This document shows positions 1,585 through 21,889 of a DNA stretch of 64,000 bases, piece by piece. The stretch lies in assembly GCF_000021805.1 (NCBI RefSeq), contig NC_011726.1:2510097-2574096 (forward strand). Reading direction: 5' to 3'. This DNA is from Rippkaea orientalis PCC 8801. Lineage in GTDB: Bacteria > Cyanobacteriota > Cyanobacteriia > Cyanobacteriales > Microcystaceae. Every line of letters starts with the position of its first letter. Within the stretch, counting starts at the first letter, position 1. The position numbers and the translations under genes are program-made. The notes beneath the pieces are model-generated. The model worked only from the letters and a program-made list of their open reading frames with translations, had not been told where the DNA came from and searched no databases.

Positions 1585-3711
1585 TTGTTAGCAGCCCTTC
1601 ATCTGTTACCTTACCCCAAGCCATTAAATCGGTTTATTAGCTTAGTCTTGAGTAGCCTGATTGTTATCATTTTATTGACTTTTACCATGTCGAGTGTTGG
1701 TGCCAATCAAACCGAAATTTTATGGGATACTTGGGGCGTTCCTCATCTTTATGCTCAGGATACAAAAAGTTTATTTAAAGCCTTTGGATGGGCACAAACT
1801 AAGAGTCATGGTAATTTAATTTTAAAACTCTATGGTCAAGCTAGGGGGAAAGCTGCTGAATACTGGGGCATTAATTATTTAGAATCCGATCAATATGTTA
1901 AAACAATGGGTATTCCTGCTAGGGCGCAAGAATGGTATCAACAACAAAGTCCCGAAATGCGGGAATATTTAGATTATTTTGCCACAGGAATTAATGATTA
2001 TGTCGCTCAACATCCCGATGAAATTGACGACTCAGTTAAATTAGTTTTACCGATTACTCCTACTGATATTTTAGCCCATCTACAAAGGGTAATTCACTTC
2101 CATTTTGTCACCAATCCTCAATCCGTTTCTTCCTTACAAACTATAGCCCCCCAAGGGGGATCAAACGGGTGGGTCATTGCCCCGGAAAAATCGGCTAGTA
2201 ATCACTCTATTTTATTAGCCAATCCCCATTTACCTTGGTCAGATTTTTATCTCTGGTATGAAGCCCACTTAAACGCTCCTGGGGTTAATAGTTATGGTGC
2301 AGCTTTAGTAGGAATGCCTGTCTTAGCCATTGCTTTTAATGATCACTTAGGTTGGACTGTTACCCTTAATCCAATTGATGGCGCAGATATGTATCAACTA
2401 ACCCTAAAAGATCAAGGATATCTTTGGGATGGAGAGGTCAAAAACTTTGAAACAAAAACTGAAACGGTCAAAATTCGTCAAGCAAATGGGAGTTATACAG
2501 AACTACAATTCGGGGTTAAACGCTCCATTCATGGGATAATTATTGCCCAAGAAAAAAACAAAGCTTTTGCCTTAAGAGTCGTCGGTTTAGATCATCCCCA
2601 CGGATTAAAACAATTGTGGGAAATGGCAAAATCTACTAACTTAGAACAATTTGAAAAGGGGTTAAAACAGTTACAAATTCCTTTGTTTAATTTTCTTTAT
2701 GCTGACCAAAAAGGACAGATTTTTTATCTATTTAATGGCTTGATTCCTAAACGCCCTCAAGGAAACTGGAATGACTGGCAAAAAATTATCCCTGGAGATA
2801 CCTCAAAAACCCTTTGGACTGAGTATCATAACTATGAAACGTTACCTCGTTTAGTTAATCCGAAAACGGGATGGTTACAAAATACCAATGATCCCCCCTG
2901 GACGAGTACTTATCCCCCCATTCTAGAAGCCAAAGATTATCCCCCTTATCTCGCCCCACCCTCCTTAAGCTATGCACCCAATATTTTGCGATCGCAGCGT
3001 TCTATTACCCTCCTAAAAGATTCAAAAAAACTCAGTTTTGAAGACGTAATTAATCATAAATTCTCGTCTAGATTATTAATGGCTGATCGTCTTTTAGAGA
3101 TTCTTATTCCCACAGCCAAAGCATTAGCTAACCCTATTGGCATAGAAGCAGTTAAAGTCCTAGAAAAATGGGATCGACAAACCAATATAGACAGTCGTGG
3201 AGCAGTACTTTTTACTCTTTGGGCGTTAACCTTAGAATCAAAGGGCATTTTTTCCCGTCCTTGGAACCCCGAAAACCCCTTAGAAACCCCCGCCGGGTTA
3301 GCCGATATTAATACAGCTTTAGCGGTTTTAGAAGGGGTAGCAGCGCAAGTTGAACTACTTTATGGTTCGTTAGATATCCCTTGGGGAGAAGTGGTTAAAA
3401 TGCGCTTTGGGGATAAGAGTATTCCAGCGAGTGGGGGACCTGGAAAATTAGGAAGTTTTCGCGTTTTAAATATTCAAGCAACGGCAGATGAAAAGTTTCA
3501 AGTTGTCTTTGGAGATAGTTTTATTGCTGTTGTCGAATTTTCTGATCCAATTCGGGCTAACGTATTAAATGTGTATGGTAATTCTAATCAGCCTAATTCA
3601 CCCCATCGGGGCGATCAATTATCCTTATATGCTGAGGGAAAAATGCGTCCAGTTTGGCGAAGTAAAGAAGAGGTTAAGAATCATTTAATTTTGGAGGAAT
3701 TGATTAGATAA
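1585..3711 (+). CDS. Penicillin-amidase-family Ntn hydrolase, an acyl-homoserine-lactone acylase-like protein of the PvdQ/AiiC/QuiP type
   Basis: 708-aa ORF. The N-terminus is hydrophobic and signal-like. The TTG at 1585 is the track start; ATG 1687 is an alternative start. The beta-subunit nucleophile motif GGSNGWVIAPEKSASNHSILLANPHLPW matches the SN...LLANPHxPW signature of AHL acylases. Confidence 0.85.
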   Translation: MLAALHLLPYPKPLNRFISLVLSSLIVIILLTFTMSSVGANQTEILWDTWGVPHLYAQDTKSLFKAFGWAQTKSHGNLILKLYGQARGKAAEYWGINYLESDQYVKTMGIPARAQEWYQQQSPEMREYLDYFATGINDYVAQHPDEIDDSVKLVLPITPTDILAHLQRVIHFHFVTNPQSVSSLQTIAPQGGSNGWVIAPEKSASNHSILLANPHLPWSDFYLWYEAHLNAPGVNSYGAALVGMPVLAIAFNDHLGWTVTLNPIDGADMYQLTLKDQGYLWDGEVKNFETKTETVKIRQANGSYTELQFGVKRSIHGIIIAQEKNKAFALRVVGLDHPHGLKQLWEMAKSTNLEQFEKGLKQLQIPLFNFLYADQKGQIFYLFNGLIPKRPQGNWNDWQKIIPGDTSKTLWTEYHNYETLPRLVNPKTGWLQNTNDPPWTSTYPPILEAKDYPPYLAPPSLSYAPNILRSQRSITLLKDSKKLSFEDVINHKFSSRLLMADRLLEILIPTAKALANPIGIEAVKVLEKWDRQTNIDSRGAVLFTLWALTLESKGIFSRPWNPENPLETPAGLADINTALAVLEGVAAQVELLYGSLDIPWGEVVKMRFGDKSIPASGGPGKLGSFRVLNIQATADEKFQVVFGDSFIAVVEFSDPIRANVLNVYGNSNQPNSPHRGDQLSLYAEGKMRPVWRSKEEVKNHLILEELIR

Positions 3712-3884
3712 GCAACAATTATATTAATTCTCAAAATTGTATCAAAACGCTGCAACCTTTCTGCTGCCTATTCTCCAGTTTTCCTCGCTTATATCTCTTA
3801 AGATTCGTAACAATCGTGAACTACAGTCCAAGTTTGCACGGTATGATGGTTAAAAATTTTTAGGTAGCGGAGTCCTAGCTGGCT

Positions 3885-4898
3885 ATGAAACGCCTAGTTG
3901 TTTGCTGTGACGGCACTTGGCAAGACCTCGAAAGTTCCTATCCTAGCAATGTGGTAAAATTAACTGAAGCGATCAAACCGATTGCTAGTGATGGAACACC
4001 ACAAATTGTCTTTTACGATGCGGGTATTGGAACAGAAAGTCAAAAGATTTCAGGAGGGGCTGCCGGAGTAGGCATCGACAGAAATATTCAAGATGGCTAT
4101 CGTTTCCTATGTCTGAACTACGTTGAAGGCGATGAAATCTATCTGTTTGGCTTTAGTCGTGGTGCCTATACCGTTAGGAGTTTAGCGGGAATGATCCACT
4201 GTTCAGGACTGCTCAAACGTTCCTACATAACCGATGCAGCAGAAGCCTACGAACTGTACCGAAACCGAGATATTAAACCCTCCGATCCCGAAGCGGTTAA
4301 GTACCGTAAAGTTCACGGTGATCGCGTCCCGATTACCCTGGTGGGGTGTTTTGATACGGTTGGAGCTTTAGGCCTCCCAGTCGTGCCACTGTTTCGGATG
4401 TTTAAGCCTTGGGTACACCGTCGCTATCAATTCTATGATACCACATTAAATCCAGATGTGCAGAATGCCCTGCACGCTGTGGCGATCGATGAGATTCGCG
4501 AAGTGTTTGATGTCACCCCCATGACTCCAAACCCCAAAGCTGAGAATCAACGGTTAATTCAAAAGTGGTTTCCAGGGGATCATGGGTGCGTTGGGGGAGG
4601 AACAGAAGCCTATCGCGGGCTGTCGGACGCGGCTTTAACATGGATGATTGATTCGATTGGTGACTTAGGATTAGGACTAGACTTTGATCTTAGTGCCATT
4701 CGCACGGGAATTAAGCTCGATTGTGAGTGTAACTTTAGCAATAAACCAGGGTTCTATCGATTAGCCGGAATCAAACTGCGTGAAGTAGGAGAAGCCCTTG
4801 AAGATCTTCATGACACAACCATTGAACGGTTGAAAAATCGTCCCGACTATCGACCCCCCAATCTAGAGAAAGTCATCCCCAAAATCGTGCAAAAGTAA
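3885..4898 (+). CDS. DUF2235 alpha/beta-hydrolase protein (Tle1 phospholipase-like fold)
   Basis: Hallmark N-terminal CCDGTW motif and the nucleophile-elbow-like GFSRGA motif. 337 aa. Confidence 0.8.
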   Translation: MKRLVVCCDGTWQDLESSYPSNVVKLTEAIKPIASDGTPQIVFYDAGIGTESQKISGGAAGVGIDRNIQDGYRFLCLNYVEGDEIYLFGFSRGAYTVRSLAGMIHCSGLLKRSYITDAAEAYELYRNRDIKPSDPEAVKYRKVHGDRVPITLVGCFDTVGALGLPVVPLFRMFKPWVHRRYQFYDTTLNPDVQNALHAVAIDEIREVFDVTPMTPNPKAENQRLIQKWFPGDHGCVGGGTEAYRGLSDAALTWMIDSIGDLGLGLDFDLSAIRTGIKLDCECNFSNKPGFYRLAGIKLREVGEALEDLHDTTIERLKNRPDYRPPNLEKVIPKIVQK

Positions 4899-4933
4899 GG
4901 TTTCTTAGTCCACGCTTTCTTCAAAAAAAGGAA

Positions 4934-6673
4934 TTGACTCCAATGTTCAAAGGCCTAAAAATAGCCTTACAGGCTGACACGGGCAGATGGTTTACTCGTT
5001 GTAATAACTGTCAACAAACCATAGGCAACAATCCTGATACCGTCACTGTTCATGTTGAAGGTTCTGTCTCGGAGCATCCCTACGCCCAATTTGAAGTCGT
5101 TGACGTAGGGAATGGGAAAATTGCTCTCAAAGCAGACACAGGGAAGTATGTAGGACGGTGTAATGGTTGCATCGTTGGGGGAGCCTATCCCGACTTTTTA
5201 ACCATTCATGTTGATGATCCTTCGATGCCATGGGCACAATTTACCCCCGAACGCTTAGCCAATGGCAAATATGCCTTTAAAGCCGATACGGGTAAGTATT
5301 TTGGTCGCTGTAACGGCTGTTCCCCCACCTCTGCCTATCCTGATACCGTCGCGGTTCACGTTGACAACCCTCATAATTCCCCGTGGGCTCAGTGGACAGT
5401 GAGTTATGTCCCGTTTTCCTATTTGGAGAGATACGACGCTATTCCGGCGGATAATGTTGCCGAAAAAGCGAAATTAGTCGGACGAGCCATGGCCACTGAC
5501 TCGCGTAACTTCTTTAAGGAATTACGCGCGAATCGTCCCATTTTTATCACCCCTAAATTCGTTCTGGTAACGTTATTTCCTGACGTACAAGAAGTTTTCT
5601 CCCGTCCCGAAGTGTTCTCCGTGAGATTGTATGCCCCGAAAATGGACCCCAATCATGGTCCGGCAATGCTCTCTAGAGATAATACAGTCTATAACTGGCG
5701 AGAAAAATCCATCATGAAAACCATGTTGGACTGGGAAGACTTACCAAGAATCAAACAAGCGGCCGGAGAAGTAGCCAAAGCTGCGTTAGATAAGTTTGCT
5801 CCCACCAAAAAAATCGAAACCGTCAATGAGTTGGCTAAATGGGTTTTAGTCAGGATGAGTGGGGATTATTATGGCTTTCCCGGTCCTGACCGAGAAACGA
5901 TGTATCGCTGGTCAAGTGCTACCCAAAGTGGGATGTTGAGAAATTTGGCCAATGATCCCCAAATCCATGAAGCCTCCGTGCAAGCCGGGAAAGAAATGCG
6001 GGATTATCTGACCCAACTGTTGCAACAGAAAAAAGCCAATAATACCCCATCTACTGCCCCTAAAGACATTTTCACCCGATTAGTTCAAGCAAATTTGACT
6101 AGCGACATTCCCTTTGACGAGAGCCGAATCCTCACCAATATGGCACTGTTGCTCATTTCTACCCTAGATACCACGGCTCAAGCGATTGTTCAGTCTCTAG
6201 AACAACTGTTGCGTCGTCCCGATATTCTGCCTAAAGCGGTAGCAGCAGCTAAGGCCAATGATGATGTAACCTTCGCTAAGTATGTTTGGGAAGCCTTGCG
6301 CTTTAACCCTGTCAGTCCCGCACTGCCTCGCTTTTGTGAGTCAGACTATACTGTGGCTGCTGGAACCTCCAGAGCGACCCGTATCCCTGCGAATAGCTTG
6401 GTTTTAGTCAGTCTCGGTTCGGCGATGATGGATGGCGCGATCGTTCAAAATCCTGAGCAATTTTCCATCGAACGGCCAAAACACAACTATATGCACTATG
6501 GTTATGGCGATCATACCTGTTTGGGTGAACATATTGGCAATGTGGTTGTTTCTGAAGTCATTAAACAAGTTTTACTTCGTCCAGGGGTAAGGTTGATTCC
6601 TGGGGATGAAGGAAAACTACAAGCTCAACCGAATGCCATTCTTAAAAGTTTTGTCATTGCCTATGACGGATAA
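4934..6673 (+). CDS. Fusion protein: N-terminal triple-repeat beta-trefoil (fascin-like) domain plus C-terminal cytochrome P450 domain
   Basis: Three repeats of about 48 aa (KADTGKY.GRCNGC...PDT..VHVD.P...WAQF). The C-terminal 410 aa carry P450 motifs: I-helix STLDTTAQ, K-helix EALR (ExxR), meander PEQFSIER, and heme loop YGYGDHTCLGEHIG (FGxGxHxCxG). Confidence 0.8.
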   Translation: MTPMFKGLKIALQADTGRWFTRCNNCQQTIGNNPDTVTVHVEGSVSEHPYAQFEVVDVGNGKIALKADTGKYVGRCNGCIVGGAYPDFLTIHVDDPSMPWAQFTPERLANGKYAFKADTGKYFGRCNGCSPTSAYPDTVAVHVDNPHNSPWAQWTVSYVPFSYLERYDAIPADNVAEKAKLVGRAMATDSRNFFKELRANRPIFITPKFVLVTLFPDVQEVFSRPEVFSVRLYAPKMDPNHGPAMLSRDNTVYNWREKSIMKTMLDWEDLPRIKQAAGEVAKAALDKFAPTKKIETVNELAKWVLVRMSGDYYGFPGPDRETMYRWSSATQSGMLRNLANDPQIHEASVQAGKEMRDYLTQLLQQKKANNTPSTAPKDIFTRLVQANLTSDIPFDESRILTNMALLLISTLDTTAQAIVQSLEQLLRRPDILPKAVAAAKANDDVTFAKYVWEALRFNPVSPALPRFCESDYTVAAGTSRATRIPANSLVLVSLGSAMMDGAIVQNPEQFSIERPKHNYMHYGYGDHTCLGEHIGNVVVSEVIKQVLLRPGVRLIPGDEGKLQAQPNAILKSFVIAYDG

Positions 6674-6848
6674 ATGAAGTCACAAAGGGTAGGGGTTTAA
6701 TATTATTGAACTCCTACGACTGCTGACGCTTACTCATGCGTAGCAAACCTAAACGCGATTTCTTATTAGATTTTAGGGTTGAATTTTTTAACCCTTGTCT
6801 AAACAATCAGTCAAAGTATCAAGATCAATTCAGGAGGATTGATTCATT

Positions 6849-8855
6849 ATGTCTACCAAAACAAAGACAATTTTCGATGAAATAAAAGCTGCTTTGGTAT
6901 TGAAAGTCATCGATAGCCCTTTGGGACGGAAATTAATCGAAGAAAAAGCGGAGAAACAAGTCTCTAAAACCCAAGAGGCTATCACCAAACCCATCGAACA
7001 GTTGAATAAAGCAACGGGTCAATTACTCTTTAGTGATACCAATAAGCCTTTACATAACATCGAATTAGAGGTGTGGGACAGAGATGTCGGGACACCAAGT
7101 GATTATTTAGGGAAGGGAGTAACGGATCAAAATGGTCGCTTTGAAATTTACTACGATCCTGAAAAAGCCGGGTTTAAAGATGCGCCGGATTTAGAATTAA
7201 GGGTCATCGATAATCGTGTTACCTTTGATAGCGACAATCAACCTGTTTATACTAATCGCATCGCCTATATTATCAAAGGTGGGGACAATGTAACCCAAAA
7301 AACCTATGATTTCGGGACGTTAACGGTTCCTTACTGGCCTTACGATCCTAACAGTCCCTTTGCGCGGATCTTCATGCCAAATCCTGAAGAAACCCCCGAT
7401 GATTACTCCGTAGGACGCAAATTTCAAGCCTATGCCTCGGCTAATGTTCTCACCCCCATTAAAGCCAAGCATACTATCGCTAATACCCTAAACCCGAAAG
7501 AACCTAGTTTGACCCAAATTCAAGCAGATTATCCCCCCAATTTAACCATCAATTTAGATCGGGAAAAACCCGGATATACCCGCAGTGATGAGTATTTTGT
7601 TTTGCGGGTTCTCAATGGCATGAATCCTTGTTTGCTCAAACGCAGTAAAAGCGATCCCAATCAGTTTAAGATGAGTTTTATTTGGGATAACTACGAAAAA
7701 GATACGGAACACGATCTTCATAATGTAGAGGCCTATTTTGTCTTAAAAGATGGCAAACTTTTCCCGACAATGATCACCATTCAAAGTCGCTATCCAGATT
7801 CTTTGGCTCCCCATTCTCCTCTGAAAGATCGGGAAGTGTATACTCCCAATGATGGGGAAAAATGGTTACAAGCTAAACGGATTTTCCGGACGGCTGCTTT
7901 ATTTGACGGAGAAGCGATCGAGCATTATGCTAAGGCTCATGTGCAGATGGAACAGTATGCGGTAGCTTGTTTCCGTAATCTACGCAAAAACCCCATCCGT
8001 TTGATGTTAACTCCCCATTTAAAGAGCATTATTAATATTAATCGCCGTGGGGATGATTTACTGGTAGAACCGAACCTTGGCTTATTTGTGACTAACGGTC
8101 CGTTAACCTATCCAGGGTTCTTGCAAATGTGTACGGAAGTAGTGGCAACCTACGACTGGAAAGACTGGCAACCCCGTCAACCTATCTGCGACGATCATAA
8201 GTACGCTAAGGCAGCGAATCTCTACTGGCAGATTTTAACCGAATATGTTGACGCATTTTTTGCGAAGCATCAACAAGCGATCGCGGATGAATGGGTAGAA
8301 ATTCGCCGTTTTTCTGAGGATTTAGTCGAACATAGTATGCCCTATCAACCCATTGAGGGCATTATGGCGAATACCGATAGTGATTACGAATGGTATGATA
8401 CAGGGGAATTGGATAAGCCTGATCTTCCCAGAGCGACGTTTAATGGCAAGACTAAGGTAATTCGACCGATTACTAACTCTAATCAACCAAGTGCCACGGA
8501 TATCGACAATTTAAAACAATGTTGCCGTCATATCATCTTCCATACGACTTTGTGGCACACTTGGGTTAACGATTCTCAGTCCGATGAGGGGGGAGAATTG
8601 GCTTATAATTCCCTAGCGTTACGCAATGGTAGTTTTGGTAGTGAAACTGATCCTAACATCGCCCCTGATCCCATAGAAGCAACCAATCAGGTTTATATCT
8701 TCAGTGTCTTAAATGGCATTAAGTACGGCTTATTGGTGAAAAATGAGGATGATGATGTGCCTGAAGAGTTAAGAACGGCTTTGCTCAATCGCAAGGATCA
8801 ATTTGCTGAATTAGGCATCGATATTGGCAATATTCGCACTTTAATTAATATTTAG
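6849..8855 (+). CDS. Iron lipoxygenase (prokaryotic LOX without a PLAT domain)
   Basis: 668 aa. Contains HYAKAH (His-x4-His) and HTWVND (His-x3-Asn) iron-ligand motifs with LOX spacing. The protein ends in a C-terminal Ile (..TLINI), the expected fifth iron ligand. Confidence 0.85.
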   Translation: MSTKTKTIFDEIKAALVLKVIDSPLGRKLIEEKAEKQVSKTQEAITKPIEQLNKATGQLLFSDTNKPLHNIELEVWDRDVGTPSDYLGKGVTDQNGRFEIYYDPEKAGFKDAPDLELRVIDNRVTFDSDNQPVYTNRIAYIIKGGDNVTQKTYDFGTLTVPYWPYDPNSPFARIFMPNPEETPDDYSVGRKFQAYASANVLTPIKAKHTIANTLNPKEPSLTQIQADYPPNLTINLDREKPGYTRSDEYFVLRVLNGMNPCLLKRSKSDPNQFKMSFIWDNYEKDTEHDLHNVEAYFVLKDGKLFPTMITIQSRYPDSLAPHSPLKDREVYTPNDGEKWLQAKRIFRTAALFDGEAIEHYAKAHVQMEQYAVACFRNLRKNPIRLMLTPHLKSIININRRGDDLLVEPNLGLFVTNGPLTYPGFLQMCTEVVATYDWKDWQPRQPICDDHKYAKAANLYWQILTEYVDAFFAKHQQAIADEWVEIRRFSEDLVEHSMPYQPIEGIMANTDSDYEWYDTGELDKPDLPRATFNGKTKVIRPITNSNQPSATDIDNLKQCCRHIIFHTTLWHTWVNDSQSDEGGELAYNSLALRNGSFGSETDPNIAPDPIEATNQVYIFSVLNGIKYGLLVKNEDDDVPEELRTALLNRKDQFAELGIDIGNIRTLINI

Positions 8856-8865
8856 TGCATCAGTG

Positions 8866-8890
8866 GGGTGGGGCGTTCCCACCCTATTTT
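8866..8890 (+). terminator. Rho-independent terminator candidate after the lipoxygenase gene
   Basis: Stem gggtggg/cccaccc (7 bp) with loop gcgtt, followed by tatttt. Confidence 0.5.
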
Positions 8891-8950: not shown

Positions 8951-9217
8951 ATGGAGATAGAATGGAACAACGATAAAGCTGCCTCAAATGTGATCAAACA
9001 TAACATTGATTTTGAGGATGCGAAAAACATTTTTTTAGCTCCAAACCGCCTTGAAAGAGAAGATAAACGTAATTATAATGAAACTAGAATACAAGTTATT
9101 GGTATAGTGAATCAAGTAGTTTTATTTGTTGTCTATCCCAAAAGAGAAAACAGATATCGTATTATTTCAGCACGAAGAGCCAATAAAAATGAACGACAAC
9201 AATATTACCAGAGTTAA
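8951..9217 (+). CDS. brnT: BrnT-family (DUF497) toxin
   Basis: 88 aa. Motifs EWNNDKAASNVIKHNIDFEDA... and VVYPKRENRYRIISARRANKNER match the BrnT consensus. Confidence 0.7.
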   Translation: MEIEWNNDKAASNVIKHNIDFEDAKNIFLAPNRLEREDKRNYNETRIQVIGIVNQVVLFVVYPKRENRYRIISARRANKNERQQYYQS

Positions 9218-9380
9218 ACTCGATCCTAAAAATCCTACTCAGGGTAAGACAAATTGGGTTAAAGTTAAAGCAATGACTGAAGAAGAAATTGAACAAGCAG
9301 CCAAAAACGATTCAGATTGTTTACCCTTGTCTCAAAAAGAATTAAATGAATTTCGCCGTATAATGGAGAAGTCAGATTAG
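9189..9380 (+). CDS. brnA: BrnA-type antitoxin (BrnA_antitoxin/DUF4415-like)
   Basis: ATG 9189 overlaps the end of brnT. Sequence ..TNWVKVKAMTEEEIEQAAKNDSDCLPLSQKELNEFRR matches the BrnA antitoxin family. The track ORF 9126 is an upstream extension in the same frame. Confidence 0.65.
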   Translation: MNDNNITRVKLDPKNPTQGKTNWVKVKAMTEEEIEQAAKNDSDCLPLSQKELNEFRRIMEKSD

Positions 9381-9386
9381 TCAGAG

Positions 9387-11879
9387 ATGATTGCTTCTAA
9401 TTTTATTGTTACTGAACTGTTTCATCAAAGTGGAGAAGCAGGAGAAAGGGTTGTTTGGGAAGCGATACAAAGGGTATTTTATGGGCGAGAATGTCTGGCT
9501 TATTGGCGTTATCCTCTGTTTTTAGGAAAGGGAAAATTTCGCAAAGAACCTGATATTTTAATCGCCGATAGGGAACTGGGTTTAATTATTATTGAAGTTA
9601 AGTCTATTAAAATTAATCAGATTATTAGTATTCAAGGACATCGTTGGCAATATAAAAATTTTTATACTAAATTTGGCAATCCCTATCAACAAGCAGAAAA
9701 TCAGTTATTTGCTTTGTTAGATTATGCTAAAACCGAACCAAGTTTAGATAATCAAGTAACAGGTAGGGTAATGGTTGCTTTACCTTTAATTACTCAACAA
9801 CAATGGCAAGAAAAAGAGTTTGATAAACTTCCTAGTAATCCTCCAATTTTATTTAAAAATTCTCTAGACTCATCGGCTTTATTGTTTGAATTGATTGAAA
9901 AAACAACGCCTGTTCTTAAAAGAGAAAAATTGAGCAATCAACAATGGGAATTACTCACTTCTATTCTATCAGGAACACCTGTTTTAAGTCAACCCATTCA
10001 TCGGGTATTGAGTGGTTCTCAAAGTCGTGGCAAGGTTTTACAAGAATTGCGATCGCAGGTAAGTCAATTGGATTTACAACAGGAAAAAATTGCCAAACAA
10101 ATACCACCAGGGTGTCAAAGAATTAGGGGAATAGCGGGGTCAGGAAAAACGGTTTTACTGTGTCAAAAAGTGGCAATTATGCACCTTAAATATCCGCAGT
10201 GGAAAATTGCCTTTGTCTTTTTTTCGCGTAGTCTTTATGAGGAAATTACCACCCACATTGATCGCTGGATTCGCTATTTTAGTCATAATCAACAAGGCTA
10301 TGATCCCAATAATCGTAACTTACGGGTTTTTCATGCTTGGGGTTCAGAGAAAAAGTTGGGGTTTTATCGATTTGTTTCTCAAGTCTGTGGAAAAACGCCT
10401 TTAAGTGTTAATCAAACAACTCGACAAAAACCTAATGAAGCATTAGGAGAAGTTTGTTATGATTTATTGAATAAAACAGGCATTCCTCAGATTTTTGATG
10501 CTATTTTGATTGATGAAGGACAAGACTTAATGGTTGATCATTGGCACTATCAAGGTAAACAACCTTTTTATTGGTTAGCCTATCAATCTTTACGTCCAGT
10601 TAATTCTATCTATCCTGAACAAAAACGGTTAATTTGGGCTTATGATGAAGTCCAAAGTTTAGACAGTTTAAAAATGCCAACAGCTAGGGAAATGTTTGGA
10701 GAAGAATTAGGTCATTTAGTCACCGGAAAGCATTTTAATGGGATTAATAAAACTGAGGTAATGTGCCGTTGTTATCGAACGCCTCATCCGATTATTATTG
10801 CTGCTCACGCGATGGTAATGGGATGGTTACGTCCTGAAGGAATGTTAACGGGAATGAGGCATAAAGAAGAATGGCAAGCATTAGGCTATGAAGTTACGGG
10901 AGAGTTGATTTCAGGCAATAATATTATTATCAAAAGACCGAAAGAAAATTCTCCTAACCCTTTGCCTTATTTATGGAAAGATGATTTAATTAAGTTTGAG
11001 ATTTATTCATCAAGACAACAGGAAATGAGTGCTTTATATCGCCATCTTAAACACAATTTACGCCAGGATGGTTTACGTCCGAGTAAAGAGATTTTAGTGA
11101 TTGTTTTAGGAGAATTTTTTGAGGCAGCAAATTTACAAAAAAATATTGCTAATTTTTTAATCAGACAAGGAATTGATATTTTTATTCCTGGGACAAAAGA
11201 TTGTAATATTCTAACTCATGAAAGTGAGGAAAATTGTGATCAATTTTGGTGTGCTGGTGGGGTAACAATTTCGCGTATTTATCAAGCGAAGGGACAGGAA
11301 GCTGATCAAGTTTATATTATTGGATTAGATCACATTGCGGAAGAGGAAAGTAATTTATCGTTACGCAATCAATTATTTATTGCTTTGACGCGATCGCGGG
11401 GGTGGGTTAATATTAGTGGTATTGGCAATTACCCTCTTTATCAAGAATTACAAAATGTCTTAAACAATGGCGATACTTTTTCCGTTACGTTTGCTGAACC
11501 TCAACAACGAGAAATTATCGGAACCGATGAAGGAGAATTATTAAAAAGCTATAGTTTAGGGAGAAGAAATTTTGAACAAGCAGCGTTACAAAATGCACAA
11601 TTAAATAGAGTTAATTTAAGCGATATTAATCTCATTGGAGCAAATTTATCGGGAGCAAGATTTAACTATACTAATCTTAATCGTGCTAAATTAATAGCAG
11701 CGAATTTACAAGGGGCTGATTTAACAGGAGCCAGTTTAATTAAAGCTAAATTGATGGGGGCTAATTTAAAAGGAGCAAATTTACAAGAGGCTGATTTAAC
11801 ACAAGCAGATTTAAGTAATGTAGACTTAACAGGGGCATTAGTCGAACCAGAACAATTAGAAAAGGCTATTTTTGAATAA
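9387..11879 (+). CDS. NERD domain + SF1 (UvrD-like) helicase + C-terminal pentapeptide-repeat fusion protein
   Basis: N-terminal NERD signature EPDILIADRELGLIIIEVKS. Walker A GIAGSGKT and Walker B LIDEGQD. The C-terminal approximately 130 aa are A(N/D)LxGA pentapeptide repeats. Confidence 0.8.
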   Translation: MIASNFIVTELFHQSGEAGERVVWEAIQRVFYGRECLAYWRYPLFLGKGKFRKEPDILIADRELGLIIIEVKSIKINQIISIQGHRWQYKNFYTKFGNPYQQAENQLFALLDYAKTEPSLDNQVTGRVMVALPLITQQQWQEKEFDKLPSNPPILFKNSLDSSALLFELIEKTTPVLKREKLSNQQWELLTSILSGTPVLSQPIHRVLSGSQSRGKVLQELRSQVSQLDLQQEKIAKQIPPGCQRIRGIAGSGKTVLLCQKVAIMHLKYPQWKIAFVFFSRSLYEEITTHIDRWIRYFSHNQQGYDPNNRNLRVFHAWGSEKKLGFYRFVSQVCGKTPLSVNQTTRQKPNEALGEVCYDLLNKTGIPQIFDAILIDEGQDLMVDHWHYQGKQPFYWLAYQSLRPVNSIYPEQKRLIWAYDEVQSLDSLKMPTAREMFGEELGHLVTGKHFNGINKTEVMCRCYRTPHPIIIAAHAMVMGWLRPEGMLTGMRHKEEWQALGYEVTGELISGNNIIIKRPKENSPNPLPYLWKDDLIKFEIYSSRQQEMSALYRHLKHNLRQDGLRPSKEILVIVLGEFFEAANLQKNIANFLIRQGIDIFIPGTKDCNILTHESEENCDQFWCAGGVTISRIYQAKGQEADQVYIIGLDHIAEEESNLSLRNQLFIALTRSRGWVNISGIGNYPLYQELQNVLNNGDTFSVTFAEPQQREIIGTDEGELLKSYSLGRRNFEQAALQNAQLNRVNLSDINLIGANLSGARFNYTNLNRAKLIAANLQGADLTGASLIKAKLMGANLKGANLQEADLTQADLSNVDLTGALVEPEQLEKAIFE

Positions 11880-11901
11880 TGAACCATTAACCAGTCAAAA
11901 A

Positions 11902-13101
11902 TTAGAAAAAATCTGGCATCCAAGGAGTAGAACCTGAGAAAATAATTGTAGCAGCTTCAATAGCGTCTGGTGTTGCGTCAAGATCACCTAATAACTGAAG
12001 TTGAATTGGGGTAAATAAACCTGTATAAAGGGAAGCTAAACCCCGTATATTGAGGCGAAAATTGCATTTTCCTCCAGGGGTTACTTCCCCACATCCTTGG
12101 GAAACTCGCAAGCAAAATTTACCATTATTGGCAACAATTAGATCATCAGTTATTTCTAAGTGTAATTCTGTTTCTATGCCTTGAGGATAGCCTCGTTTTG
12201 ATAAGGCTAAAGGCACATTAACAACTCTTAACATCCAACGTTTTTGATACTTGATTTTAGCTGTTTGTTCAGGTAATAATAACAAAGTTGAATCCATCGG
12301 TGAACTTCGCCACTGTACTTGACTAGCCAAAGAACGATGAGCAGCCATAAAAGACCAGAAATGTTTAACTGAATCAGACGTTAATAACACCCAATCTTTG
12401 AGGATTAAATTTAATCCATTAGTTCCTTTTTCTTGAGTAAAAATAACATAACCTTCGGGTTGATTTTTCTCTCCAATAAGATAAGCATAGCTCTCTTGTT
12501 TACCTTGCACTTCTAGGGTTTTTTGCCAAATAGCAAAATTGCGATCTAAATTACCATTATTTTTTCTAGCTTGTTGTTGATAAATTGCTTCAAATTGTTC
12601 ATAATTAATAGGAGAAATAGACGTAATAGGGAGATTCTTCTCTGAAATTTGAATTGTATCAGTAGGTAACTCCCAAAGACAATAACTTCCCCCTTGTTCA
12701 TATCCAACTTTCCGATAAAGAACTTGAGTCGCTGGATAGAGGACAGAAATGGGATATCCTGAGTGATAAAGTTCCTCTAAGGTATGACTCAAAAGTTGGA
12801 ATGCAACTCCTTTTCCACGATGTTCTGGTGCAACTCCTACGGCAGCAATACCAGCCATTGGGATAAGATTTTCTCCATACCATTGTCCCATAAAATAAAT
12901 AGCTAAACCCGCAATTACTTGATCATTGTGATGAAGAATACGAAAATTTTGGCTACCAATACGATTAAAATAAGTTTCTGATTCTGTCAGAAATTCCGCA
13001 AAACATTGACTGATTAGTTTTTTAATTTGTTGTTCGTCTTCAGGATGACGCAGAGAACTGTAGTTAAGGGAGAATGTCATACCTTTCCAATCGTTACACA
13101 A
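11902..13101 (-). CDS. GNAT acetyltransferase, Eis-like two-domain architecture
   Basis: 399 aa. Acetyl-CoA binding-like motif VAPEHRGKGVAFQLL in the N-terminal half. Confidence 0.6.
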   Translation of the reverse strand: MCNDWKGMTFSLNYSSLRHPEDEQQIKKLISQCFAEFLTESETYFNRIGSQNFRILHHNDQVIAGLAIYFMGQWYGENLIPMAGIAAVGVAPEHRGKGVAFQLLSHTLEELYHSGYPISVLYPATQVLYRKVGYEQGGSYCLWELPTDTIQISEKNLPITSISPINYEQFEAIYQQQARKNNGNLDRNFAIWQKTLEVQGKQESYAYLIGEKNQPEGYVIFTQEKGTNGLNLILKDWVLLTSDSVKHFWSFMAAHRSLASQVQWRSSPMDSTLLLLPEQTAKIKYQKRWMLRVVNVPLALSKRGYPQGIETELHLEITDDLIVANNGKFCLRVSQGCGEVTPGGKCNFRLNIRGLASLYTGLFTPIQLQLLGDLDATPDAIEAATIIFSGSTPWMPDFF

Positions 13102-21121: not shown

Positions 21122-21889
21122 ATGGAAACTGTCTTCCCCTATCTTGAAATTCCCGCAGAAAATCTTATTTATGATGATGGAGAACCCTTGGAAAGTAATC
21201 GTCACCGTATCGCAATGAACGTCTTAATTAGTTCAATTTATCAAAGCTTTGCTGATCGTCAAGATTTTTTCGCGGGTGGCAATATGTTCGTTTATTATAG
21301 TGCAACACAAAGAATGAATCGAGATTTTCGCGGTCCGGATTTTTTTGTTACCCTAAATGTGGATGGAAATCAAAGCCGAAAAGCTTGGGTTGTTTGGAAT
21401 GAAAATGGTCGCTATCCTGATGTTATTGTCGAGTTAATGTCGCCTTCAACAGCCGTGATAGATAAAACTATTAAAAAAGATCTGTATGAACAAATATTTA
21501 AAACCAAAGAATATTATATTTTTGATCCCTTTGAGTCTAATTCTTTACAAGGGTGGCGACTCGATGATCATCAACACTATCAAGAAATTATTCGGGATCA
21601 ACGCGGATGGTTATCATCAGAAACCCTAGAATTATATTTAGGAACATGGTACGGAACAATTCATCACGAAAGCGCAAGTTGGTTAAGATTTTATAATCAA
21701 GAAGGTCATTTGATTCTTTTACCAGAAGAAGCAGCACAACAACAAGCTGAAATAGCACAGCAACAAGCTGAAATGGCAAAACAACAGGCTAAAATGGCTG
21801 AAGAACGTGCAGAAACGGCTGAACAAAAGGCACAAAGGTTAGCTAACCGTTTACGAGAATTGGGAATTAATCCTGATGAAATTGAGTAA
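21122..21889 (+). CDS. Uma2-family (DUF820) putative endonuclease with C-terminal QQQAE coiled-coil repeats
   Basis: The Uma2 core resembles the other two paralogs in this window. C-terminal repeats QQQAEIAQQQAEMAKQQAKMAE. Confidence 0.7.
   Translation: METVFPYLEIPAENLIYDDGEPLESNRHRIAMNVLISSIYQSFADRQDFFAGGNMFVYYSATQRMNRDFRGPDFFVTLNVDGNQSRKAWVVWNENGRYPDVIVELMSPSTAVIDKTIKKDLYEQIFKTKEYYIFDPFESNSLQGWRLDDHQHYQEIIRDQRGWLSSETLELYLGTWYGTIHHESASWLRFYNQEGHLILLPEEAAQQQAEIAQQQAEMAKQQAKMAEERAETAEQKAQRLANRLRELGINPDEIE

Follow-up and report, generated by a model that had tools for sequence, protein, structure and literature searches.

Three adjacent genes on the chromosome of the cyanobacterium Rippkaea orientalis PCC 8801 are described here: one for a BrnT-family toxin, a short open reading frame (ORF) coupled to it, and one for an 830-amino-acid (aa) protein in which a NERD nuclease domain, a superfamily 1 (SF1) helicase and a tail of pentapeptide repeats are joined. 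They lie in the stretch of DNA that was analysed, which is 64,000 nucleotides (nt) long and is referred to as the window, and all three exist where an earlier reading of the letters alone (the sequence-only reading) had placed them (Table 1). The product of the large gene is 100% identical to "pentapeptide repeat protein [Rippkaea orientalis PCC 8801]". The 63 aa of the short ORF are counted from the ATG at 9189, the mechanically called ORF beginning at TTG 9126. It overlaps the toxin gene by 29 nt, and the gap between its TAG and the ATG of the helicase gene, previously given as 7 nt, measures 6 nt (9381-9386).

Table 1. Features of the toxin and helicase genes of R. orientalis PCC 8801, in window coordinates
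Feature	Position	Strand	Basis or remark
Terminator-like hairpin, 3' of the upstream lipoxygenase-like gene	8863..8882	+	6-pair stem and T-rich tail; consensus match only
BrnT-family toxin gene, 88 aa	8951..9217	+	Pfam PF04365
BrnT-coupled short ORF, 63 aa, PCC8801_2439, putative non-canonical antitoxin	9189..9380	+	Conserved BrnT partner
NERD nuclease / SF1 helicase / pentapeptide-repeat protein, 830 aa, PCC8801_2440 by position	9387..11879	+	
NERD PD-(D/E)xK nuclease domain, residues 15-114	9429..9728	+	Pfam NERD
Predicted catalytic NERD codons	D56 9552-9554; E70 9594-9596; K72 9600-9602	+	
SF1 helicase core, about residues 225-700	10059..11486	+	Invariant motifs, PADLOC, hhalign, Foldseek
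Helicase motifs	Walker A 10125-10151; Walker B (DEGQD) 10503-10526; motif VI 11376-11405	+	
Conserved capping helix, residues 714-723, joining helicase to repeats	11526..11555	+	AlphaFold2 secondary structure
Pentapeptide-repeat beta-helix, 19 repeats, residues 726-820	11562..11846	+	Pfam, AlphaFold2

Domain searches of the 830-aa protein agree with the proposed combination of a NERD domain, a UvrD-like helicase and a pentapeptide tail. Pfam recognises NERD (2.3e-7, 31.8 bits against a cutoff of 22.1), UvrD_C_2 at residues 626-676 and pentapeptide repeats at about 717-828 (8.5e-30). For context, 8 genomic and 80 metagenomic loci were collected, the metagenome scan being based on the helicase alignment, and invariance was assessed over 32 homologues of 56-77% identity. 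The NERD residues D56, E70 and K72 are invariant in these homologues and in 38 of 38 loci that encode a repeat tail (tailed loci). Equally invariant in the 32 are the Walker A residues G248, A250, G251, G253 and K254, the Walker B residues D376, E377, Q379 and D380, and further D420, E421, Q423, S424, Y463, R464, P466, T627, K635, G636, E638, T668 and R669. SF1 motifs I, Ia, II, III, IV, V and VI are all present and conserved; a helicase core lacking key motifs, which the sequence-only reading had named as an outcome that would speak against it, was thus not found. Across 86 sequences, K254, D376, E377, Q379, R464, G636 and R669 are unchanged, with one alignment gap at R669. The conserved residues and domain matches establish the architecture and indicate that both the nuclease and the helicase are, as predicted from their motifs, catalytically intact. 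The AlphaFold2 model of the whole protein has a mean predicted local distance difference test score (pLDDT) of 82.5.

The repeats of the tail are consecutive and in register, amounting to about 4.75 coils, and are modelled after the capping helix as a regular beta-helix (pLDDT 85-95). Pentapeptide-repeat domains are recognised by at least eight contiguous repeats in a quadrilateral beta-helix, and with its 19 repeats and its predicted beta-helix the tail fits this description. At the junction with the helicase, E717, L718 and L719 are conserved, and the entry G725-x-x-N728-F729 is invariant in the 32 homologues. The A(D/N)LxX repeat and the predicted right-handed quadrilateral beta-helix are shared with cyanobacterial Rfr-type proteins (Alr5209, HetL) and with Qnr/MfpA, but the repeats here are a short C-terminal appendage on an enzyme and score under the cutoffs of those families.

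Residues 1-715, searched against 1.84 billion representative proteins, matched 434 clusters at E<=1e-30. Among the best 150 of these, only seven (three of them fragments) carry repeat tails, while the others are mostly 700-750 aa if full length, and those nearest to the query end just past the helicase, often in a short acidic tail. In a neighbor-joining tree of 86 core sequences, all 41 tailed proteins fall into one clade, where the only exceptions, two "untailed" sequences, are both cut by contig ends. The tree indicates that the tailed clade is monophyletic and that the tail was gained once, in a cyanobacterial clade. Named tailed members are all cyanobacterial, from Rippkaea, Crocosphaera, Aphanothece, Gloeothece, Hydrococcus and other Pleurocapsales, Spirulina, Lusitaniella, Prochloraceae and Cyanobacterium aponinum. 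A pentapeptide tail on a NERD-helicase had been called unusual, which holds for the wider family and fails within this large cyanobacterial clade, where the tail is the rule.

Tail-less relatives, annotated as "nuclease-related domain-containing DEAD/DEAH box helicase" on cyanobacterial, Deinococcus and haloarchaeal plasmids, have the same NERD and SF1 architecture and 33-47% identity over about 99% of residues 1-715 (42-47% for those from Deinococcus, Leptolyngbya and Nostoc). They differ in lacking the repeats and in their surroundings of plasmid, insertion sequence (IS), restriction or Cas3 genes. The catalytic lysine, kept throughout the tailed loci, is found in only 23 of 45 members of the metagenomic tail-less sister group. 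In the other 22, K72 is replaced mostly by Leu, Met, Ile or Ala and the downstream PYQQAENQL motif is degraded, with all helicase motifs intact, and these relatives are probably nuclease-dead helicases. In eight of the tail-less loci, the helicase gene lies 1-3 genes from a gene, mostly on the opposite strand, for a giant protein of about 2064 aa that combines an AAA_11/AAA_12 (Upf1-like) helicase with four S1 RNA-binding domains. A 733-aa tail-less homologue in AP018319.1 (locus L094, 6968-9169) is labelled "pentapeptide repeat protein" in GenBank and has no such repeats, the label apparently having been transferred from tailed relatives; similar "pentapeptide repeat" labels occur in AP018205.1 and AP018291.1. 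The 746-aa RefSeq protein at the equivalent position of the sister Leptolyngbya plasmid has no pentapeptide repeats either.

The best match of the 830-aa protein among the PADLOC defence models is PDLC03002 "Helicase" (5.5e-87, 291 bits), which it covers at profile positions 139-649 of 707, the core only. A tblastn search against plasmids found relatives on Lactococcus and Acinetobacter plasmids, where the annotation places a DUF2290 gene directly after the helicase gene; of these neighbours the Lactococcus one was scanned, and it matches DUF2290 models. Since these DUF2290-linked helicases score 559 and 1141 bits against PDLC03002 over its full length, the profile is, on its matches, that of the helicase of the Helicase+DUF2290 system. 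Homology of the R. orientalis protein with this helicase is evident from an hhalign comparison with a DUF2290-linked member, which gave 100% probability (E 8.9e-62, 31% identity) over residues 22-709 and so included the N-terminal domain. The ATPase and helicase motifs are shared, as is the order of N-terminal NERD-like domain, SF1 core and C-terminal beta-hairpin segment. The likeness to defence helicase-nucleases that had been suggested is thereby borne out in that the helicase is related to one validated in defence.

Several differences set the R. orientalis protein apart from that system. Its score stays at the core-only 291 bits, against 559-1141 for true members, and it carries the extra pentapeptide tail. 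No DUF2290 gene was found in the window or at about 87 helicase loci with phmmer and two DUF2290 queries. The catalytic lysine is present here and replaced in the Acinetobacter member, where the column of K72 holds Thr (hhalign) or Glu (MAFFT) and the Asp and Glu are kept (hhalign). Finally, the known system resides on satellites, prophages and plasmids, whereas the protein here is chromosomal and vertically inherited. Nhi, C3a187, the DRT NERD-helicase and GajB of Gabija likewise have a PD-(D/E)xK or NERD nuclease fused to or paired with an SF1 helicase, but matches to these models are weak and partial (GajB 1.2e-7, C3a187 NERD+UvrD 1e-14, and the DRT NERD-helicase), that to Nhi covering only the C-terminal 58 helicase residues (E 4.7e-4, 16.9 bits), which places the 830-aa protein outside those families.

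When the four genes on either side of the helicase were clustered, the commonest family reached at most 8 of 42 tailed loci, and a conserved operon partner was rejected. Recurrent neighbours of the tailed clade are SelO, DedA/VTT, ChlM, CofD, AdoHcy hydrolase, GlgC and arginase. Synteny with VTT/DedA, with ChlM and with SelO/CofD is each confined to one sub-clade, yet persists down to 59-62% helicase identity. More than seven strains of C. aponinum share one helicase cluster at >=90% identity, and neither 50,697 phage records nor IMG/VR yielded a homologue, so that a phage or provirus origin was rejected. The persistent synteny, the gene shared among C. aponinum strains and the absence of phage copies indicate that the tailed gene has been inherited vertically and is a long-standing resident of the chromosome; it also appears to be fixed within species. 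Homologues in housekeeping contexts, the finding that the sequence-only reading itself had named as telling against a defence role, are what the tailed clade shows. In the window, ten large neighbouring ORFs, which extend over some 8 kb on the upstream and 9 kb on the downstream side, gave no PADLOC match, and ORFs scanned to about 25 kb encode metabolic or membrane proteins except for one Uma2-family putative endonuclease.

Identification of the toxin is secure, as the BrnT product matches Pfam BrnT_toxin (PF04365) over profile positions 1-77 of 77 (1.4e-26, 93 bits, cutoff 34.5); it is 35% identical to BrnT from an Acinetobacter plasmid. The label "BrnA" for its partner had to be given up. 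The short ORF has no Pfam match from either the TTG or the ATG start, 17 scanned members of its family gave none at E<=10, including to BrnA (PF14384), a PDB profile search gave no match, and BLAST against canonical BrnA found nothing. Canonical BrnA of the Acinetobacter plasmid pSSA3_1 has a C-terminal DNA-binding segment (…SIRLDADVLAWFKAQGKGYQTRMNEILR…) that is absent from the 63-aa protein. The pair therefore resembles the BrnT/BrnA type II toxin–antitoxin (TA) module of the Brucella abortus type in its full-length BrnT domain and its gene order, with the toxin first and an overlapping partner, and differs in the partner. A database search found 29 homologues of the partner, none with a Pfam domain, in Aphanothece, Crocosphaera and Cyanothece; apart from two, their lengths are 62-86 aa. 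At two of the collected cassette loci (L011 and L012), an 88-aa BrnT gene precedes the partner with the identical 29-nt overlap; at a third (L013), neither a Pfam domain nor a match to BrnT was found in the ORF at the toxin's place. Judged by these homologues, the 63-aa ORF is a real gene and a conserved BrnT partner, probably a non-canonical antitoxin. Its AlphaFold2 model is helical, but the confidence (pLDDT 57.7) is too low to support a fold search.

The tight spacing of the TA pair and the helicase had been taken as the mark of a small defence or abortive-infection islet. That all three genes form one functional unit is very improbable, as BrnT was found beside the helicase at none of about 87 other helicase loci. 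The adjacency is particular to R. orientalis, and cassette and helicase occur apart in related genomes: Aphanothece sacrum and Crocosphaera XPORK-15E carry the BrnT/partner cassette at other loci, away from the helicase, and the closest relative (strain SU2, 78% identity) has no TA cassette upstream of its helicase. In favour of a unit are the 6-nt gap, probable co-transcription of the three genes in R. orientalis and a 98.6%-identical strain in which, in three assemblies, the partner ORF lies directly upstream of the helicase, so that the adjacency is conserved at the species level. An Acinetobacter nosocomialis plasmid, pSSA3_1 (11.4 kb; locus L010, 2314-5774), also has a bona fide Helicase+DUF2290 directly beside a canonical BrnT/BrnA; this likeness to the window is probably a coincidence, with the TA there a plasmid-addiction module. 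The cassette is thus, from its distribution, independent of the helicase, a mobile element that landed by chance upstream of a long-resident chromosomal gene, and two unrelated elements abut. The terminator-like hairpin suggests that BrnT, partner and helicase are a new transcription unit in PCC 8801, and because it follows the upstream gene, the promoter of the cassette now probably drives transcription of the helicase. A tight arrangement with a TA cassette is, as a lesson of this locus, not evidence for a functional unit. All three assemblies of the 98.6%-identical strain break inside the cassette (within their first 190-250 nt), a hint that the genome has further copies of it or that it is polymorphic; the window itself contains one copy only.

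Our preferred reading, to which we assign a probability of roughly 0.55, is that the large gene encodes a stand-alone chromosomal nuclease-helicase of the Helicase+DUF2290 helicase lineage, which the unrelated mobile BrnT cassette abuts, and that its role belongs to the core genome. Because of the housekeeping contexts and the fixation within lineages, we lean towards a constitutive DNA-surveillance enzyme, acting in genome maintenance and/or the destruction of linear foreign DNA, over a mobile phage-defence module. Substrate, coupling of motor and nuclease, and role of the tail are what we infer for such an enzyme. The SF1 motor would translocate on or unwind DNA at the expense of ATP and could pass it to the NERD nuclease of the same chain, in the manner of Dna2, AddAB or Nhi, so that DNA ends or intermediates with single-stranded DNA would be the targets and would be degraded. 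Rather than being an anionic DNA mimic, the uncharged repeat tail may provide a rigid surface at which a partner protein docks or the enzyme associates with itself, or through which it is regulated. Larger cyanobacterial genomes often lack RecBCD (PMC5101192); a further end-processing enzyme could find a place there, which makes the proposed role plausible, if unproven.

A number of observations weigh against a core-genome role, and a dedicated immune role is quite possible. Ancestry in the Helicase+DUF2290 lineage favours immunity, and the closest validated relative and the tail-less plasmid relatives point to defence. Tail-less Leptolyngbya relatives lie on megaplasmids amid IS elements and nucleases, and those of Deinococcus adjoin hsdR, a DUF790/helicase pair, Cas3 and WYL genes. 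Defence-like genes are seen beside some tailed loci too: GmrSD_N, and AAA_15 together with DUF4276 or DUF3226. In two distant genomes (L003, 2548-4344, and L007, 11390-14520), an AAA_15/AAA_21 ATPase with DUF3226/DUF4276 lies within 1-5 kb of the tailed helicase, and the second also has a GmrSD_N gene. Moreover, the flanks in the window differ from those in the 78%-identical relative SU2, where GlgC lies upstream and CheR-PAS downstream. The protein could accordingly be a dedicated single-gene anti-phage or anti-plasmid nuclease-helicase in which the fused NERD domain replaces DUF2290 as effector and the tail senses or traps a phage protein. We regard this as a tentative alternative. The E. 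coli Helicase+DUF2290 (Rst_HelicaseDUF2290) blocks T7 (Rousset et al. 2022, PMC9122126), and the homology with the helicase of this system over residues 22-709, the weak matches to the C3a187, GajB, DRT and Nhi models as well as the restriction, Cas3/WYL, IS and nuclease genes beside the tail-less plasmid relatives fit such a role. The tailed clade, however, sits among housekeeping genes with sub-clade synteny and fixation within species, in the window defence genes were found neither in the 8 kb or so upstream nor in the 9 kb downstream, and in one test a lactococcal Helicase+DUF2290 failed to protect (PMC11381338).

Two further alternatives concern the tail and the substrate. Pentapeptide-repeat proteins of the Qnr/MfpA type are held to mimic DNA and bind gyrase (PMC3089455, PMC8145042), and a tail of this kind might recruit the enzyme to gyrase or to some other DNA-binding enzyme, or act as an auto-inhibitor at the DNA channel of its own helicase, an idea to which the register kept over the first ~14 repeats would lend itself. 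We consider it unlikely: residues 725-822 have a net charge of 0 where a DNA mimic is expected to present an anionic surface, there are only about 4.75 coils, and NCBIfam Qnr/MfpA models score 20-29 bits against cutoffs of 240-500, outside those families, the best matches being the cyanobacterial Alr5209 and HetL types, themselves below cutoff like all repeat families. Given the uncharged tail, classical DNA mimicry, which the sequence-only reading had raised, is not supported. Still less probable is an enzyme acting on RNA in the manner of an Upf1- or Schlafen-like nuclease-helicase. The top Foldseek matches in the PDB are all SF1 helicases, SLFN11, SLFN14 and Upf1 being the best and RecD, Dna2 and PcrA/UvrD the others, and one clade member has a weak Pfam SLFN-g3_helicase match. 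The TM-scores are nevertheless low (0.24-0.36), with the DNA helicases RecD, Dna2, PcrA and UvrD scoring alike; the related defence system targets a DNA phage. NERD and PD-(D/E)xK nucleases are mostly DNases.

A bolder idea, which we rate as rather doubtful, is that of an innate-immune role: the tailed protein would be a nuclease-helicase fixed throughout cyanobacteria, and its beta-helix a decoy or sensor whose release would license NERD cleavage. The tail might, for example, engage a phage DNA-binding or anti-restriction protein, or gate the DNA channel of its own enzyme. If so, one polypeptide would replace the two-gene Helicase+DUF2290, and a cyanobacterial pentapeptide-repeat domain would be assigned an enzymatic role for the first time.

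Whichever role applies, a literature search found nothing on the locus tags, on this protein or on the NERD-helicase-pentapeptide architecture. What appears to be new is a helicase of the Helicase+DUF2290 type with a fused nuclease predicted to be active, no DUF2290 partner and a clade-specific pentapeptide tail. Of the dozens of pentapeptide-repeat proteins in cyanobacteria, almost all are, to our knowledge, without a known function; in the tailed clade such a domain is attached to an enzyme whose ATPase, helicase and nuclease activities can be tested. The clade also links the validated but mechanistically obscure Helicase+DUF2290 to a stand-alone relative with an intact nuclease, which may help explain what DUF2290 contributes.

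The GC content of the window is 0.40-0.47 over 2-9 kb and a lower 0.33-0.37 in the TA and helicase region. An 85-aa antisense ORF over the repeat tail (11666-11923, - strand) is an artefact that mirrors the repeats coding for the pentapeptides, and not a gene. The Uma2-family putative restriction endonuclease gene lies at 21122-21889, and further Uma2 genes are found close to the helicase of Gloeothece (L005) and to the BrnT cassettes of L011 and L013. Synteny of PMT_2 between PCC 8801 and ATCC 51142 was rejected, the PMT_2 genes being 30% identical over 109 residues and not orthologues. Upstream of the three genes, a same-strand run (1585-8855) encodes a penicillin-amidase family protein (1585-3711), a Tle1-like phospholipase (3885-4898), a cytochrome P450 with three similar repeats in its N-terminal third (4934-6673) and a lipoxygenase-like protein (6849-8855), and may be a lipid- or oxylipin-modifying cluster.

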